Shown: positions 4,404-12,746 of the stretch, in pieces
How positions within the stretch are numbered: position 1 is the first letter of the stretch
Layout: each line of letters starts with the position of its first letter
Sequence record: NC_054910.1
Strand: one strand, 5' to 3'
Length of the DNA: 64,000 bases
Source: Escherichia phage EcNP1
Notes under the pieces: generated by a model
Told to the model about the DNA's origin: nothing
The model's database searches: none
The model's input: only the letters and a program-made list of their open reading frames with translations
Program-made: the position numbers and the translations under genes

Positions 4404-6500
4404 TTATCCTTGAACGAACTTGTAAGGCATGTTTGTAATATCTATGCAAGACGCAATAATTCCAAGAGATGATTCTACTTTCTGTTTAACGTTTGATGAA
4501 ACAAATGATGCAAAGTCAACTCTGTCTTCTATTTCAATATCACCTGTCATTGCAACTACTTCACCAGTTTCCATTAAATGGTCTCCATCATAAATTACTG
4601 ATTCGGTGAGTTCTTCTGTAGTCATAACTTCAGCTTGAATGAGTTTTGTATTATTAGATGTTGTTCCGTCATTATTAGAAGCATCAGTTATTTTATTAAC
4701 TTTGACCATCAATCCGCGCGGTAGAATAACTTCAGCTTCTGTTGCTATTCCGAGACTTCCTGGATATACAACATTAACTTTATGAGCTCCATCAATTGCC
4801 CATCCTATTTGAACTTTAACGTATTCAGGATTTTCTTTATACGCTCTTATTTCGTTTGGATTAATAGTTATTCCTTCTTCATTTTTATCAACTGTCAATT
4901 CATTACGAGCTTCTGGTTCTAAAAGACCAATACCAGCATGTGTAATTCCAAAACGTCCAAAAATGATAGGAGTTAAAGAAGTAGATACAAAATTTCTGAA
5001 ATAGAACACTTTATTTTTAACTAGTGCTTCGTATATAGGAGCAGTCATACTTTGAGCACGATAAACTGTAATGCCTTCTGGTATACGGTCACCATTTTCA
5101 AAAGCTGAATCTAAGTTATTTATAGCAGATTCAATTTCTTTTTCACTCATTACATCATATCGTTCTGGATTGTAGCGGCCTAAAAGAAGATTATTGATGT
5201 CAGTATATCCTGATCCACAATACTCTCTAATGCCGCGCTTTTGCGATGGAGTATATTTAGAACCATCGCGTGCAATGGTAATATCAATCATTGGACCTGC
5301 ACCAATTCCAGAAAAACTATAAATCATTCGTTTGAGGAATTTAGTTTTTGCTGCGTTCCAGGAATTTTTAGTTATTTCTTCCCAGACTTCATCTGGCTGT
5401 CCTTTACGGGTTTTATTATGTTTATCAAGCCATTTATCTTTGTATTCTTCAAAGAATTTATTAACAGCTGCTGCGTATTTCTCTAAACATTTTATTGAAG
5501 TAGTTGGTTCATTTTTAATCGCATTAAGAATTACATCTTTAATTTTTTCAGAAACTTCATTAACCTCACTTTTTGAAAAGAATTTATAGTCATAGTGAAG
5601 TTCATCTGCAGTTCCTTCAGCAATAATTTTTGCTGCCTTAGTTTTAGAAGCTAATGAATTAATTCCAAGCTTCATTTCTTCTGCTTCTGGAATTAAAGGA
5701 GCAGTAGCAGGTTTATTGAAATTAGCTGCAGTAGATTCATACTTCTGGAATAATTCGCTTTCAAATCTAGAAGATTCTAATGATTGACTTTGCGCAATTG
5801 CTCTACGGGAAATTTTAACTTTAACGATTACAGCTTGGTCAGAGCGTTTATCATTTTCTTGCGCAATAGATGCTGCAATTGCCTCATTTTTAGTTACTTG
5901 AGCACCAGTATCTTTATTGATATAAACATCGCCGACTTTTGATTCAACTTTAGTAAAGAGCTCGGTACTAATTTCCGGAACTCCCGGAATGTCTTCTAGT
6001 GATACATTTTTACGATGTATAAGAATATATGCATACTTTTTATCATAATCCCAGAGTTCCTTAAGAAGGACGTATCTGCCACCTGAACGACTACGGATAA
6101 GTCTATCAGCAATAACTTGAATTTGTCGAGCTTGACCAGCAGTTTTAGACTTAAGAATACGGAGCATACAGGCATCAATTTTATACTGACGCATCGTCTG
6201 CATTGCAACAGTAAAAACTGAATTGATATAATTAATTGGGCTTGGACCGAGACCTTTTAATTTAGCAATTGAACCTTTAGCAGTTAATGTAAAAGGAACA
6301 ATATGCATCATTTTATCGCCCATTTTTAAATCGCGATTAGTATCACCTCCAGATGTATAGGTACATAAACGAAAGCCTGGTTGTTCAATTGCGTCATCGA
6401 CATGAACTGAAAAAATTTGCGGTATTTTCTTCTTTGGATTTAAGTTTGTAATCGGAAGAGTAGTATCTTCGTCAAATAATTCTGTAATGAGTTCCATCAT
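4404..6500 (-). CDS. alt: Alt ADP-ribosyltransferase (head-packaged, injected)
   Basis: 698 aa (T4 Alt 682 aa); ART motifs VYRAQ / FVSTSL / TEAEVILPRG; position between gene 54 and gene 30 as in T4. Confidence 0.85.
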   Translation of the reverse strand: MMELITELFDEDTTLPITNLNPKKKIPQIFSVHVDDAIEQPGFRLCTYTSGGDTNRDLKMGDKMMHIVPFTLTAKGSIAKLKGLGPSPINYINSVFTVAMQTMRQYKIDACMLRILKSKTAGQARQIQVIADRLIRSRSGGRYVLLKELWDYDKKYAYILIHRKNVSLEDIPGVPEISTELFTKVESKVGDVYINKDTGAQVTKNEAIAASIAQENDKRSDQAVIVKVKISRRAIAQSQSLESSRFESELFQKYESTAANFNKPATAPLIPEAEEMKLGINSLASKTKAAKIIAEGTADELHYDYKFFSKSEVNEVSEKIKDVILNAIKNEPTTSIKCLEKYAAAVNKFFEEYKDKWLDKHNKTRKGQPDEVWEEITKNSWNAAKTKFLKRMIYSFSGIGAGPMIDITIARDGSKYTPSQKRGIREYCGSGYTDINNLLLGRYNPERYDVMSEKEIESAINNLDSAFENGDRIPEGITVYRAQSMTAPIYEALVKNKVFYFRNFVSTSLTPIIFGRFGITHAGIGLLEPEARNELTVDKNEEGITINPNEIRAYKENPEYVKVQIGWAIDGAHKVNVVYPGSLGIATEAEVILPRGLMVKVNKITDASNNDGTTSNNTKLIQAEVMTTEELTESVIYDGDHLMETGEVVAMTGDIEIEDRVDFASFVSSNVKQKVESSLGIIASCIDITNMPYKFVQG

Positions 6501-6533
6501 ATCCTCTCTAGTGTTTATTCTATTTATAAAATT

Positions 6534-6551
6534 AAAGGCCCGAAGGCCTTT
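6534..6551 (-). terminator. UUCG-tetraloop hairpin / terminator
   Basis: AAAGGCC-CGAA-GGCCTTT on plus strand, i.e. GGCC-UUCG-GGCC in minus-strand RNA, followed by U-rich tract. Confidence 0.55.
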
Positions 6552-6738
6552 AATAATCTAGTGGTAAGAGAGTACGGTATATTTCAAACTTCGGACCTTT
6601 TTCATAGGCATCAAATGTTTCTGTAAATTTATTATAAGCATATGCATCTACAAATTCAAGAACGATTTGTGATACAGAAGTAGAAACATCTCCACCTTCT
6701 TTTTGAGCAACGACAATTGTTTCTAAGTAAGCTTTCAT
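6550..6738 (-). CDS. hypothetical protein (62 aa)
   Basis: Track ORF, start overlaps ligase stop region; no recognisable motif. Confidence 0.45.
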   Translation of the reverse strand: MKAYLETIVVAQKEGGDVSTSVSQIVLEFVDAYAYNKFTETFDAYEKGPKFEIYRTLLPLDY

Positions 6739-8195
6739 AGACCAGTTACCTCATGAAAATCACCAAATACATCCTCGAATGTATTAGCTTTAGTTTTATC
6801 TTCACGTAAACGAATCGCAATTGGAAGAAATAATTTAACGTAATCAGTGCGGCCATCAGATTTTAACCAACCATTGCATTCGCACTCTAGAATTTTTCCA
6901 ATATAATAATTTTGGTTTTCCATAATGCGAGTACGGTCAAGTTCATGTGATTTTACACCAGCTTTATCTTTTAAACCTGAACCAGCGTTTACTTTAATTT
7001 TTCCGCATTCTGATTCAAGAATAAATCCACCTGCTTTAGTAGGGTCTTTACGGTGAGGATAAATTCCTACAATTTTTAAATCAACATCAATTACTTCTTT
7101 AAATTTATAGAGATTTTTTGAACGAGCATTTTCCCACAATCCATCGGTATTTTTGAGAATAATACCTTCAAGACCTCGGTCAATATATTTTTTATAAATT
7201 ACCTTAGCTTCATCTAGGTTATTTACTACCTGGTTTTCAATTAAAATTACTTTATCATATCCTGATGTCATTTGTTCTAGTTTAGAAAAACGTACATCAT
7301 ATTTTAAACGAAACGCCGGAAGACCGTATATTTCTACCAACGGGACATAATCCCAGACCTGAAACTTCATGCATTTGGCTTCTTTTTCAGAAATGGTTCC
7401 CTTTAAAGATTTATTGGCAATTCCATTAGAAGCAGTACGAGATTCAGCTACTTCGGCAAACTCTTTAGCTTTACTGATTTCAGGAGCATCAAAAAGAAAA
7501 TCTAGGCCTTCTGGTTCCTTTTCAACTTGCTCATGGTATACTAATTCGCCATCAATTAACACACCTTCTGGATGAATCTGGCGGGCTTCAGCAGTCATTT
7601 TGATTAACTCTTCCTTAAGAAGATCTAATCCTAGATATTCATTACCAGCTCGCGATAAAAGACGAACATCATCTAATTCATCGCCTCGGACTTCAGCAAA
7701 ACACCGAGCTCCATCTGCTTTTAACTGCGCAAAAGCTGGAAACTTGATATTCTTACTAATGCCTTTTTCATCATAAGAACTTGCCAGCATTTGAGGTTGT
7801 TCAGGAATTAAACCTGGCCAAACTTTGTTTGCAATAGATACTGAAGCACCACATTCAAGGTCTCGCATCATAACTCGACGCAAAACTTCAACATCATCCT
7901 TTTTACCATCGGTGATATATCCAGTTAATTCCTCAATTGCTGCATTGCCAGTTAATTTCCGAGTAGCTAACGTGAATTCAATGAAGTCAAGCATATCGGT
8001 AATAGTCAGCATTCCAAAACTCTGGGTAGCAATACCAGGTTTAGGCCATTTCTTGATATAATACTGTAACCCACGAGAATAAGTCAGACGATATACTCGT
8101 TTAAGCAATTCATTATCTTTATTCTTTTCAAGAATTGCTTGCTTCTGCTTAGTTGATCCGATAGATGCTATTTCATTCAGAATTTTAAGAATCAT
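6735..8195 (-). CDS. 30: ATP-dependent DNA ligase gp30
   Basis: 486 aa (T4 ligase 487 aa); adenylation motif KADGARC; T4-like N-terminus MILKILNEIASIGSTKQK. Confidence 0.95.
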   Translation of the reverse strand: MILKILNEIASIGSTKQKQAILEKNKDNELLKRVYRLTYSRGLQYYIKKWPKPGIATQSFGMLTITDMLDFIEFTLATRKLTGNAAIEELTGYITDGKKDDVEVLRRVMMRDLECGASVSIANKVWPGLIPEQPQMLASSYDEKGISKNIKFPAFAQLKADGARCFAEVRGDELDDVRLLSRAGNEYLGLDLLKEELIKMTAEARQIHPEGVLIDGELVYHEQVEKEPEGLDFLFDAPEISKAKEFAEVAESRTASNGIANKSLKGTISEKEAKCMKFQVWDYVPLVEIYGLPAFRLKYDVRFSKLEQMTSGYDKVILIENQVVNNLDEAKVIYKKYIDRGLEGIILKNTDGLWENARSKNLYKFKEVIDVDLKIVGIYPHRKDPTKAGGFILESECGKIKVNAGSGLKDKAGVKSHELDRTRIMENQNYYIGKILECECNGWLKSDGRTDYVKLFLPIAIRLREDKTKANTFEDVFGDFHEVTGL

Positions 8196-8461
8196 TGCTC
8201 ATCCTTCAAGGTTTGGTTTACAGCTCTATTATAAATCAATTCATCATTAAGCTCAGGCAAAGACTTATGATATGTAGTTCTAACTTTATTTCCTTGCATC
8301 CAGTGCTTGACGTAAATGAAACCTTGCTCTACACATTTTTTAAAAATTCGTTCGTCTTTTTGAGCTCGAAATTCTGGATTGCATCTAAAAAATTGATTTA
8401 CGTGACCGTAATCACGTGTAGTATTACCTTCATTTTCATAAATAGTGTGAACGACAAACAT
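8192..8461 (-). CDS. hypothetical protein (89 aa, 30.1-like position)
   Basis: Track ORF, 4-nt overlap with ligase start. Confidence 0.5.
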   Translation of the reverse strand: MFVVHTIYENEGNTTRDYGHVNQFFRCNPEFRAQKDERIFKKCVEQGFIYVKHWMQGNKVRTTYHKSLPELNDELIYNRAVNQTLKDEQ

Positions 8462-9300
8462 TAGAATGCTCCTTGAAAAATATTATCACCACTAGTAGGT
8501 CTATTATACAAATACTCTATGCCACCAGGTTTAATATAGTTCCATGTCTGAAACGGATGTGTCTGATATGGATGATATAGATGATTATAAGGATTTAATC
8601 CAAGCGTTCTCCAGGTAGTGTTCCAAGGAAAAGAATCGTTTTTAACCATCTTCTCAATTAAATCTTTTATAGCTTTTTCACTATCAAAACTTTCTTTATT
8701 TTCCTTCGGCGAAAAAAGCTTATTTTCTACATCATTCCATGTATAAACTCGCTGCGCAGTTTTTGGAATATTGTCACGCTCTCCTCGAGCCATCCAATAA
8801 ACTGGAACATTTAATATTTCACTCGCATGATCGCAGTGATGAGCGAGATCGTCAATATAACAAATTACGTTATATTTCTCTTTTGCCTTTTTGAACAGCT
8901 CTTCTTTTGAAGAATCATGACCACACATCATTACTTCTGAGAAGGCACCGGGAAAAAGAGCATTCAAATTAAATTGACGATTCAACAGAGCGTCAATAGA
9001 ATCACCCAATGCTGTAACAGCTACAAAATTATAATCTTCTTTTAATTTGTTAATTACACACAGGGCATCTTTATACGGAGACAAGTAACGAATAAAATCT
9101 GAACGATTGTATTTTTCAATTAACTTGACGCCAAGTTCTTCGTCACAATTAAAGAGTTTACCTGGAGAAATAAATTTCTCATCTTGGATCATTTTTAAAA
9201 TATGTTCTAATGGAAGATTATATTTTTGAGCAAAATAAGGAAGGCCTGATTGCCAGCTTAAACAAACTCCATCAATATCAGTTAAAATAGTTGGCTTCAT
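8461..9300 (-). CDS. HAD-superfamily hydrolase-like protein
   Basis: 279 aa; N-terminal ILTDIDGV matches HAD motif I (DxDGV). Confidence 0.55.
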   Translation of the reverse strand: MKPTILTDIDGVCLSWQSGLPYFAQKYNLPLEHILKMIQDEKFISPGKLFNCDEELGVKLIEKYNRSDFIRYLSPYKDALCVINKLKEDYNFVAVTALGDSIDALLNRQFNLNALFPGAFSEVMMCGHDSSKEELFKKAKEKYNVICYIDDLAHHCDHASEILNVPVYWMARGERDNIPKTAQRVYTWNDVENKLFSPKENKESFDSEKAIKDLIEKMVKNDSFPWNTTWRTLGLNPYNHLYHPYQTHPFQTWNYIKPGGIEYLYNRPTSGDNIFQGAF

Positions 9301-9761
9301 AGAGAGTCTCTTAATAGGTTTAACACATCAATAAATTCAGCTTCGGTTAGTATTGTATCATCTTTTGTTAGACCACTAGCCATGCTGTGCTTCAAAACTT
9401 TTCCTTTCGAGGCTTGTAATGCATCACGAAAGCCCCTGTTTTGGATCGCTGCTTCAAAATATGCATTTGTGTATAATTCTTTCCATGCTGGAGAGTATCT
9501 TGAAAATGGAACTCCAAGCCAGAACAACGTGCCACGGTCCTGAGCTCTAGCATAAGCTCGTCCAGCTTTTTGCGCGTCCAATCCGGACATCCCAAATATA
9601 CGTCTTTGCTGTTCAACATTTTTCACCTTACATCCTTGGAGGAATCCTTCGAGACCTCCAAATTGGATACCATCCATAACGAAAGGCCATTGGGCGAAAT
9701 TGCTTAATGCACATGATGGCCATCTAAAATTGCTTCTAATCTCTAGCTCAGACATTTTCAA
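9297..9761 (-). CDS. NADAR / YbiA-like (DUF1768) protein
   Basis: 154 aa; SNFAQWPFVMDGIQFGGLEGFLQGCK resembles the NADAR core SNF..PF..DG..F...E..FQ..K. Confidence 0.55.
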   Translation of the reverse strand: MKMSELEIRSNFRWPSCALSNFAQWPFVMDGIQFGGLEGFLQGCKVKNVEQQRRIFGMSGLDAQKAGRAYARAQDRGTLFWLGVPFSRYSPAWKELYTNAYFEAAIQNRGFRDALQASKGKVLKHSMASGLTKDDTILTEAEFIDVLNLLRDSL

Positions 9762-9954
9762 TACTTATAATTTCAACATCAGCCCAATGACCATAGCAAG
9801 GAAGACGAAATTCAATTGGCCAGTTAGGGTCCTTTTCTAATATAATAGACTTAACTTGCGGTTCTTCATGTTCATCGGTATACGGACCTTTATATGTTAC
9901 TTTATATGTAACCTTAATGTACTGAATTCCAAAAATCTTATTAATTATATTCAT
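9748..9954 (-). CDS. hypothetical protein (68 aa)
   Basis: Track ORF in overlapping co-directional array. Confidence 0.45.
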   Translation of the reverse strand: MNIINKIFGIQYIKVTYKVTYKGPYTDEHEEPQVKSIILEKDPNWPIEFRLPCYGHWADVEIISIENV

Positions 9955-10148
9955 ACTAATTCCTTTAATCCATAGATAGGAGATAATTCATCACCCATAC
10001 GAAGGTCTTCATTTCCATCTACCCAGGAAACAATATAAGCTTCTTTTATTTGAACGTCTCTCCATTTAAATGGAGGTAGAACCTTAGAAATTAATCCAGG
10101 TATACCGACTCCCTTTAATTCAACAGTTTGACCTAAAAAGAATTTCAT
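9951..10148 (-). CDS. hypothetical protein (65 aa)
   Basis: Track ORF in overlapping co-directional array. Confidence 0.45.
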   Translation of the reverse strand: MKFFLGQTVELKGVGIPGLISKVLPPFKWRDVQIKEAYIVSWVDGNEDLRMGDELSPIYGLKELV

Positions 10149-10486
10149 TAGAACCTCATCTGAAAACCGTGCGATTTAACATTACCGCCGCCAATGTCAG
10201 AAATGTTAATTTCACGCGCAATTGAAGGGTCAATGTCAATTTCACGATTGAGTTTAGTGATAGCTAGAGTATCACGCCCATTTACAGTACGGAACTCTAA
10301 GGGGCAGACTACATTGACGTAGTTTTTAATCGATTCACTGGTAGGTTGCAAATGAGCAGGAAGGTCTTTAGGCGCCTTAGAGAAAACTACTTCACAGAAA
10401 TTTTTGCGGGTATCAAAATAAGTAGTCATAAACACAGTATTTTCCTCAGTAAGGGGCCGAAGCCCCTGTTTTATTTTAAATATCAA
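10148..10486 (-). CDS. hypothetical protein (true start possibly internal Met near 10429)
   Basis: Track ORF; a GC hairpin with CGAA loop at ~10452-10470 lies inside the annotated 5' end, suggesting a later start. Confidence 0.45.
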   Translation of the reverse strand: MIFKIKQGLRPLTEENTVFMTTYFDTRKNFCEVVFSKAPKDLPAHLQPTSESIKNYVNVVCPLEFRTVNGRDTLAITKLNREIDIDPSIAREINISDIGGGNVKSHGFQMRF

Positions 10487-10841
10487 ATTCGTTAAGAACT
10501 ACATCAAAGATTGCTTCAAGATGCTCAGGTTTAGCTCTGTTACTCAGAATATGACGAATCCAAGTTTTAACCAGAAGCTTACGATTAACGCCGTTCCAGC
10601 AAGGATGGGTACCTAAATCACGTTGACGAAAATCATCATCTAATGCGATTTTAAAAGAAGAACCTTCTTTCGTGATTGAAACCGTGATGCCATTTTCAAA
10701 TCGCATATAAACGTAATTAGGAGTCATATACTGTTCAATTTCGCATACTGATCCATTTTGATGTTTCCAAAGGCAGATAGTATCAATAGAACCTGCAATA
10801 CCATTAGAAACATATTTACGTTCAAAGTTGATGTAGTTCAT
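10476..10841 (-). CDS. hypothetical protein (121 aa)
   Basis: Track ORF downstream of an early promoter. Confidence 0.5.
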   Translation of the reverse strand: MNYINFERKYVSNGIAGSIDTICLWKHQNGSVCEIEQYMTPNYVYMRFENGITVSITKEGSSFKIALDDDFRQRDLGTHPCWNGVNRKLLVKTWIRHILSNRAKPEHLEAIFDVVLNEFDI

Positions 10842-10867
10842 TTTTATTCTCCGAGATGTTTAATTGC

Positions 10868-10907
10868 GGTACAGGTATATAATATCATATCCTGTACCAA
10901 AGTAAAC
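10868..10907 (-). promoter_or_regulatory. T4-type early promoter with -10 inside an 8-bp inverted repeat
   Basis: Minus strand GTTTAC then GGTACAGG-(15 nt containing TATTAT)-CCTGTACC. Confidence 0.5.
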
Positions 10908-10909
10908 AA

Positions 10910-11242
10910 TTATTTTACTACTTTCCAGTGCTGCATGTCAAGTTTGCCAACTTTTTTCATCTTCTCAATTAAGCGTTCTGCACGTTGGCGAGCTGTAACA
11001 TAATACCATTCACCTAATTCATTTTGTTCAATTTTTCCAACGATTACTGTATTCAATTCATAAATCCAACCGGTAAAGAAATTATGAACTTGAATTGTAA
11101 AGGTGAAATCTGTTCCCATACCTTCTGTTGTTTCTACTTCAATAATATCACCTTCAACTGCCATTAAGAACCACATAGTTTCGTTATATTCACCATTGAA
11201 ACATTTAGCTTTAACCGCAGCGTTCAGATTAATCGTTTTCAT
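10910..11242 (-). CDS. hypothetical protein (110 aa)
   Basis: Track ORF. Confidence 0.5.
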   Translation of the reverse strand: MKTINLNAAVKAKCFNGEYNETMWFLMAVEGDIIEVETTEGMGTDFTFTIQVHNFFTGWIYELNTVIVGKIEQNELGEWYYVTARQRAERLIEKMKKVGKLDMQHWKVVK

Positions 11243-11269
11243 TTTATTCTCCTTTGTTTGTGTAAGATA

Positions 11270-11299
11270 ATATTATCACAAAGGAACCATACTGTAAAC
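11270..11299 (-). promoter_or_regulatory. T4-type early promoter
   Basis: Minus strand GTTTAC + ~18 nt + TAATAT-like -10. Confidence 0.45.
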
Positions 11300-11321
11300 A
11301 ACTTTGTGCAATCTTTGGAAA

Positions 11322-11347
11322 ATAAAAAAGGACTCCCGAAGGAGTCC
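11322..11347 (-). terminator. intrinsic terminator (UUCG tetraloop)
   Basis: GGACTCC-CGAA-GGAGTCC on plus; minus RNA has GGACUCC-UUCG-GGAGUCC followed by UUUUUU. Confidence 0.65.
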
Positions 11348-11352
11348 TCAAC

Positions 11353-11529
11353 TTATGCTTTCTGCTTACCAAAACGAGAAGCATCATCTCGAAGAACCGC
11401 ACGTGCTCGGCGCATGATCTTCTCAACAGTTTGATTGATACGAGAGTTCGACCCACGCTTGTAGCCAGCGCGTTTAGAATCACCAACTTTCTTTTCAACT
11501 GCTTTCTTTGCTTTAGCTTGTTTTGCCAT
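11353..11529 (-). CDS. small basic protein (58 aa; track ORF extended to 11571)
   Basis: ATG at 11527-11529 gives MAKQAKAKKAVEKK..., Lys/Arg rich. Confidence 0.45.
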   Translation of the reverse strand: MAKQAKAKKAVEKKVGDSKRAGYKRGSNSRINQTVEKIMRRARAVLRDDASRFGKQKA

Positions 11530-11649
11530 TATAAATTCTCTTTTAAATGAAAATGCAGGACTTATTGGCATTGCCTGCGCAAGCCCTCAAGGGGAACATA
11601 GGTTTTTGAATATTTAACGACCAGGATAACCATAAACCCGTCATCATAC

Positions 11650-11898
11650 TTACTTCAGTGTTACCACAAAGTGACGAACTGCTTTTCGTGCGGCAGAAGC
11701 CAAAGGCTTAGCATATTTAAGTTCATCTTTTTCCTGAAGCTCAGCAGCTAATGCAGTTTGAGCAGGATTCAGATGTTTGAAATAACGCAGGATTTCAAGA
11801 GCTTCGGCTTCAACATCAATAGATGCGCCATAGTTTTCGTGACCATTATTCCATGCGTTTCGTTGCAGTTCAAGAGCGTGTTGTAATTGTTTAATCAT
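11650..11898 (-). CDS. rIII: lysis-inhibition accessory protein RIII
   Basis: 82 aa (T4 RIII 82 aa); position between 30.x genes and gene 31. Confidence 0.7.
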   Translation of the reverse strand: MIKQLQHALELQRNAWNNGHENYGASIDVEAEALEILRYFKHLNPAQTALAAELQEKDELKYAKPLASAARKAVRHFVVTLK

Positions 11899-12045
11899 TT
11901 AAAAATTCTCGTTAGAGATTAAAACTCGGTAGTCACGTTCTTCTGAATTTCATCTTCTTTCGACAGATCTCTCAGTTGTAGACTACCACGTAGAATTGTT
12001 CGGTTAACTTATTATTCCGACACCCAATTCATATTATTATTTATA

Positions 12046-12381
12046 TCACTTATAAAGACACGGAATAGCTTTATAGTGACAGGTAACGAATTTTTGTTTA
12101 ATTTCTTTTGGCTGCTTAAGTCCCAGAGCTACAAAAGGATGCGGAACGTTTCGAATTTGACCAACTGGAAGAGAAGTCAAATCACCAACTTCGCAGAAAC
12201 CTTCAGGAACATCAGGACCAACGGAGTGAACTACACACAGTTCAGGAACTTCACCTTGAACACGTTTACCGATAATAAGTCCTGATTCTGTAACTTCTTC
12301 ATCACCGGCTTGCGCAGGTTCAGAAACTAAAATAACGTATTCACCGACAGCACGAATTGGTAGCTGTTGTACTTCAGACAT
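12046..12381 (-). CDS. 31: co-chaperonin gp31 (GroES analogue for capsid folding)
   Basis: 111 aa (T4 gp31 111 aa); position upstream of rIII. Confidence 0.85.
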
Positions 12382-12437
12382 CGTTTTTCCTTTTTGTTAA
12401 CAGATGAATTAATAATAACAAATAATTCTTAAAGCAT

Positions 12438-12746
12438 TTATTTACCAATAAATTGAAGCAAATGCTCAACTTTCATACCATTAACGGAAATCAATTTGTC
12501 AATAGAAAAACCTCGCCATGCACCAAGCTCAACATCAAATACTGGAATCATATCAGTAGATTCTTTCCGAGTAGATTCAGTCAATTTACCGGTTTGCATG
12601 GTTGGCATAAAATCGGCATCACGAGTACCTTTCATAGTACGAATAGTACCATCAGACTTTTCAAAAACTATGTTTGAAATACCCATGGACAATTTAGTTT
12701 TCAAAATTTCACGAATTGCTACTTTTTGTTCAGTTGTCAGTTTCAT
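12438..12746 (-). CDS. hypothetical protein (102 aa, 31.1-like)
   Basis: Track ORF. Confidence 0.5.
   Translation of the reverse strand: MKLTTEQKVAIREILKTKLSMGISNIVFEKSDGTIRTMKGTRDADFMPTMQTGKLTESTRKESTDMIPVFDVELGAWRGFSIDKLISVNGMKVEHLLQFIGK

Follow-up and report, generated by a model that had tools for sequence, protein, structure and literature searches.

The stretch of 64,000 nucleotides from Escherichia phage EcNP1 (NC_054910.1) that we have analysed, referred to here as the window, carries an intact gene 30.3 that we read as an orthologue of adfN (anti-DarT factor NADAR) countering the bacterial defence DarTG1, and beside it a gene, 30.2, with a separate function of the capped HAD phosphatase type; we place the probability of this reading at roughly 0.92. 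In the course of an infection, the host DarT1 toxin would put ADP-ribose on guanine bases of the phage DNA, and gp30.3, as a stand-alone N-glycosidase of the NADAR fold, would cleave the guanine-linked ADP-ribose, by which replication would be restored and the DarTG1 toxin-antitoxin defence neutralised. The function of AdfN is already known and has been characterised experimentally in T4, and what the window adds is only another intact allele. Counter-defence by removal of ADP-ribose from DarT-modified guanine, which a preliminary description of this DNA had proposed, has been published for the T4 orthologue (PMC11825919, PMC11125620 and the HIDEN-SEQ preprint), and the case of a lytic phage with an orphan antitoxin-like enzyme that undoes a DNA-modifying defence had already been made for T4.

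The window has a GC content of about 35%, and nearly all of the genes in its first 30 kb lie on the minus strand. At the DNA level, positions 8000-10200 share 99.5% identity with Escherichia phage vB_EcoM_Nami, and with hundreds of Tequatrovirus genomes the identity is 95-98%; the T4 gene order is kept, running through alt, alt.1, gene 30, 30.1, 30.2, 30.3, 30.4 and 30.5 and on to gene 31 and cd. Neither 30.3 nor 30.2 is a chance reading frame, since the 30.3 ORF matches Pfam PF08010 at model positions 1-138 of 138 (231.5 bits against a cut-off of 36, E=3.2e-69) and the 30.2 ORF matches PHROG 420 (E=7e-92); by tblastn, 1509 phage records contain a match to the former and 1437 a match to the latter. 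The 30.2 stop and the 30.1 start share the sequence TAATG, 30.4 and 30.3 share 8 nt at the stop of the one and the ATG of the other, and the arrangement of the 30.3 stop and the 30.2 start as ATGA is compatible with translational coupling, as far as sequence can suggest it. A scan of positions 6400-12500 for sigma-70 promoters and terminators returned 23 sites, as compared to 20.7 +/- 4.3 in shuffled sequence, and so does not inform the assignment of transcription units. A mechanical ORF call begins 30.3 with the TTG at 9761, which gives 154 aa, whereas in the annotations of T4 (GT7) and phage Nami it begins with the ATG at 9755 and has 152 aa. We have chosen the ATG because the published numbering of residues E36 and K43 fits that start only; the two extra codons, TTG AAA, are probably outside the translated gene. 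Both ORFs of the preliminary description lie, on the minus strand, at the coordinates that it gave; the 154-aa ORF at 9297-9761 needs correction at its start, and both parts of the NADAR signature that it quoted, SNFAQWPFVMDGIQF and EGFLQGCK, are found in that ORF.

Table 1. Positions in the window of the genes and sequence features discussed in the text.
Feature	Positions	Strand	Basis or remark
alt, 698-aa Alt ADP-ribosyltransferase gene	4404-6500	(-)	
DNA ligase gene 30	6735-8195		
30.1, small gene between gene 30 and 30.2	8192-8461		
30.2, 279 aa, probable HAD-superfamily phosphatase with predicted C1-type helical cap and disordered C-terminal tail	8461-9300	(-)	
gp30.2 C-terminal tail, about 80 aa	8461-8700	(-)	residues about 230-279 predicted disordered
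gp30.2 HAD motif IV, D150-D151	8848-8853	(-)	end of strand 145-150 in model
gp30.2 HAD motif III, K132	8905-8907	(-)	just before helix 133-142 in model
gp30.2 HAD motif II, T96	9013-9015	(-)	end of strand 91-96 in model
gp30.2 HAD motif I, D8-I-D10-G-V12 (nucleophile Asp, general acid/base Asp)	9265-9279	(-)	end of strand 1 (residues 4-7) in model
ATGA overlap, 30.3 stop and 30.2 start	9297-9300	(-)	read directly from sequence
30.3 / adfN, 152 aa, predicted phage-type NADAR DNA ADP-ribosylglycohydrolase	9297-9755	(-)	stop codon 9297-9299
gp30.3 C-terminal segment, residues 138-152, last helix	9300-9344	(-)	helix 138-151 in model; identical to T4
gp30.3 H123, third catalytic position	9387-9389	(-)	invariant (73/73); directly after last strand (residues 120-122) in model
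30.3' (T4 annotation), 75-aa ORF in another frame inside 30.3	9392-9619	(-)	
gp30.3 catalytic helix motif E36-G-F-L-Q-G-C-K43	9627-9650 (K43 9627-9629, E36 9648-9650)	(-)	conservation, YbiA alignment, published mutants
30.4, 68 aa	9748-9954	(-)	PHROG 2042 (function unassigned)
TTG AAA, extra codons of the mechanical ORF call upstream of the ATG	9756-9761	(-)	

At equal length, gp30.3 is identical to T4 gp30.3 in 146 of 152 residues (96%). The six differences (M56, D60, K63, A67, R107 and M125 here; L, A, Q, S, K and I in T4) are conservative or surface-type substitutions that all fall outside the conserved positions of the family, and all 19 of the invariant family positions are kept. All of 73 family members have E36 and at least 90% of them K43, and the motif that holds these residues lines up with the 'sEhyfQaqKf' of E. 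coli YbiA. The presence of His in place of the third catalytic acidic residue is a hallmark of the phage gp30.3 subfamily of NADAR proteins (PMC11125620). The protein is full length and has the C-terminal helix that is lost in the RB69 allele. Single-sequence searches of PDB sequences with gp30.3 and gp30.2 gave nothing meaningful, so that profiles or structure models were needed: a profile of 74 gp30.3 homologues matches E. coli YbiA (E=0.002) across the SNF...E...Q..K motif, and the predicted structure of gp30.3 matches the NADAR fold, at 20% identity to YbiA. Structures were compared by Foldseek against the PDB, and the alignment for the structure model was made without the T4 GT7 row; a search of gp30.3 against NCBIfam returned no match. 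The NADAR/YbiA-like identity first proposed for this ORF is borne out by its fold, by the presence of E36, K43 and H123, by the PF08010 match and by its near identity to T4 gp30.3. Failure of profile or structure searches to place the protein among the NADARs, or loss of its catalytic residues, would have spoken against that proposal, and we have found the placement made and the residues present.

What gp30.3 is expected to do can be drawn from experiments with T4 and its relatives. [quoted passage not shown] Purified AdfN strips ADP-ribose from DarT1-modified DNA, most of the activity of T4 AdfN is lost in the E36A and K43A mutants, and truncation at the C-terminus impairs the protein, as exemplified by the inactive allele of DarTG1-sensitive RB69, which lacks the last 15 aa (PMC11825919). 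AdfN counters DarTG1, which ADP-ribosylates guanine, but not DarTG2, which acts on thymidine (PMC11825919); in vitro, the phage NADAR hydrolyses guanine-linked and not thymidine-linked ADP-ribose on DNA (Toxins 2024, PMC11125620). A transposon screen of T4 (HIDEN-SEQ) has independently shown 30.3/adfN to be conditionally essential on DarTG1 (bioRxiv 10.1101/2025.11.20.689424). T4 AdfN fails to rescue the toxicity of DarT1, or to replace the antitoxin, in uninfected E. coli (PMC11125620, PMC11825919), and a T-even-specific factor is required for its full activity, non-T-even phages being rescued only partly (PMC11825919). Because of this lack of rescue in uninfected cells and the partial rescue of non-T-even phages, the activity of AdfN is taken to need a T-even-specific context, for which the modified cytosine of T-even DNA may be a candidate potentiating factor. 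From the sequence we infer that the window allele behaves like T4 AdfN despite the six differences at non-conserved positions.

It has also to be considered whether gp30.3 might mainly degrade soluble immune signals derived from ADP-ribose, or reverse the modifications made by Alt, ModA and ModB, a role that the location of alt only 3 kb from adfN in the window would suit. We regard this as improbable, since direct experiments have demonstrated de-ADP-ribosylation of DNA guanine together with a strong phenotype specific to DarTG1 (PMC11825919, PMC11125620, HIDEN-SEQ preprint), and since 30.3 is dispensable on E. coli K-12 without DarTG1, with insertions recovered at 27 of 28 sites in T4 Tn-seq. 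It is possible that gp30.3 has an additional substrate besides the guanine-linked ADP-ribose of DNA. As an observation on gene arrangement, alt lies downstream of adfN on the same strand in one early-region cluster, which therefore brings together a writer and an eraser of ADP-ribose.

The preliminary description further implied a functional pairing between the NADAR protein and its HAD neighbour, and one can picture gp30.2 and gp30.3 as a two-enzyme module in which the HAD enzyme either processes the product of the NADAR enzyme or is itself the T-even factor that potentiates AdfN. Such a module would accord with the ATGA overlap of the two genes in the window phage, with their wide occurrence in the same phage groups (the 1509 and 1437 records noted above) and similar host distributions, and with the reported need of T4 AdfN for a T-even factor (PMC11825919). 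The wider record of loci makes it very unlikely: among 80 viral loci anchored on 30.3, in which we looked for 30.2 homologues by HMM search of all ORFs, such a homologue is adjacent in only 14 and elsewhere within 5 kb in another five, and it is absent in 61, while in 78 loci anchored on 30.2 it is with the ligase gene, and not with 30.3, that 30.2 stays together. The published genetics point the same way. In T4 Tn-seq on DarTG1, insertions in 30.2 had a log2FC of -0.12 (p=0.61) as against -7.25 (adjusted p 0) for insertions in 30.3, the data sheet being assigned by order and by the depletion of 30.3 rather than by its header, and the rescue of RB69 required only adfN on a plasmid (PMC11825919), though RB69 carries its own 30.2. 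On the basis of the locus counts and Tn-seq, 30.2 is apparently dispensable for the counter-defence to DarTG1. The implied pairing is thus not supported, adjacency being limited to some lineages and insertions in 30.2 conferring no DarTG1 sensitivity; synteny and the published Tn-seq led us to reject gp30.2 as the potentiating factor of AdfN, and that factor appears to be something other than 30.2. Both 30.2 and 30.3 are non-essential on E. coli K-12 in the published T4 Tn-seq. In the same DarTG1 data (the sheet assigned otherwise than by header), insertions in 30.4 were moderately depleted (log2FC -1.79, adjusted p 0.014), for which the simplest reading is a polar or coupling effect on adfN, because the 3' end of 30.4 overlaps the start of 30.3.

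Among the NADAR proteins described to date, T4 gp30.3, i.e., AdfN (PF08010, Phage_30_3), is the orthologue of the window protein, which occupies the same position between 30.4 and 30.2 and shares its three catalytic residues and C-terminal helix. The DarG1 antitoxin (the DarT1-associated NADAR of the BC4488 family, represented by the Geobacter lovleyi NADAR, PDB 8bat) differs from gp30.3 in several ways. The flanks of 30.3 are 30.4 and the HAD gene 30.2 and not a DarT toxin gene, and adfN has been described as an orphan (PMC11825919). With its 152 aa, gp30.3 is without the N-terminal extension of the 219-aa 8bat protein, its third catalytic position is His123 where NADARs linked to DarT have Asp and YbiA has Glu (PMC11125620), and T4 AdfN cannot stand in for DarG1 in uninfected cells (PMC11825919, PMC11125620). 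Identity is only about 20% with E. coli YbiA and the Phytophthora NADAR (PDB 2b3w, 8bau), and YbiA has been tied to N-glycosidase activity on riboflavin intermediates and to a DNA-damage operon rather than to phage counter-defence (PMC11125620). That the window allele is non-functional, as in RB69, or is a housekeeping N-glycosidase of the YbiA type acting on riboflavin intermediates is hardly credible for a full-length protein with its C-terminal helix and all 19 invariant positions, a phage-specific His in place of the YbiA-family Glu, and so low an identity to YbiA.

Some further observations concern the family of adfN genes at large. In a subgroup of Tequatrovirus 30.3 alleles the alignment stops at residue 144 of 152; the ORF stays open, but the last eight residues of the C-terminal helix, which matters for function, are different. 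The PADLOC model PDC-M42C, a candidate defence component, is weakly matched by 56 of the 73 gp30.3-family proteins in an alignment of members from metagenomes (best E=3.4e-5), and is not matched by the window protein; this is a hint, at the level of sequence, that the phage enzymes have relatives in a candidate defence system containing a NADAR. The frame annotated in T4 as 30.3' is 64-82% conserved among 13 relatives, as compared to 84-95% for the 30.3 frame; its first Met codon is Thr or Ile in seven of the 13, most of which have a Met one codon downstream, and in one relative it contains an internal stop. By this comparison 30.3' seems to be under no constraint of its own, a by-product of the 30.3 frame rather than a gene.

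The assignment of the 279-aa neighbour to the HAD proteins, made initially from the DIDGV motif, stands: the motif is found at residues 8-12 of the ORF at 8461-9300, all four HAD motifs are present, and the predicted structure of gp30.2 has the Rossmann-like HAD core fold. All of 65 homologues have D8, D10, K132, D150 and D151, and at least 90% of them have T96. The helices between motifs I and II (residues about 16-86) form a C1-type cap in the model. Such a cap usually goes with a small-molecule substrate. On the model and its conserved motifs, gp30.2 is probably active as an Mg-dependent phosphatase of the capped HAD type, and small-molecule substrates are favoured because of the predicted cap and the closest structural neighbours. 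Several weak lines of evidence suggest that the nearest relatives of gp30.2 are the 5'(3')-deoxyribonucleotidases (NT5C family, PF06941; cdN/mdN, PDB 2jao, 2i7d and 1q92, and the S. epidermidis protein 3bwv), a likeness that falls short of establishing membership in NT5C. The best target-normalised TM-scores from a Foldseek search of the PDB with the gp30.2 model (0.62-0.70) point towards deoxyribonucleotidases, the gp30.2 profile matches mouse cdN 2jao at E=0.035, and PF06941 is matched, weakly, by 12 of the 65 homologues (best E=1.2e-4); the window protein itself matches no Pfam family at E<=1, PF06941 included, and none in NCBIfam. Our literature search found no functional study of gp30.2. 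We have also entertained a DNA 3'-phosphatase similar to the domain of T4 Pnk, in view of a weak match to PHROG 415 (E=0.002) and the linkage to ligase, and have set this speculative candidate aside, as the predicted C1 cap and the structural neighbours favour small-molecule substrates.

The more constant neighbour of 30.2 is the DNA ligase gene. Of the 78 loci anchored on 30.2, 72 have it downstream of 30.2 and on the same strand, in 64 cases within 400 bp, as compared to 38 of these loci with 30.3 upstream and 21 with 30.3 adjacent; the loci are not phylogenetically independent. Across very divergent T4-like phages 30.2 is almost always found directly upstream of the ligase gene, whether or not the small gene 30.1 intervenes, and by gene order it has clearly stayed with ligase rather than with adfN in evolution. 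A hitherto undescribed role for gp30.2 as an accessory to DNA ligase or to nucleotide metabolism is a tentative proposal that we consider rather unlikely as it stands; its substrate could be a specific (deoxy)nucleotide monophosphate, the pool of which it would edit, or a phosphorylated by-product that matters for the sealing of nicks and that it would clear. The conserved pairing of 30.2 with ligase offers a modest lead on one of the approximately 100 T4 genes without a known function. The C-terminal tail of gp30.2 is rich in Trp, Pro, Tyr and Asn and varies between lineages, being absent or different in many homologues. Near its end it reads G-I-E-Y-L-x-x-x-P-T here and GTGIEYLNRQPT in a group of homologues that includes the one from Klebsiella phage vB_KpnM_VPA32, and this GIEY(L)xxxPT motif, common to several lineages, may be a docking motif, one that could bring the phosphatase onto a partner.
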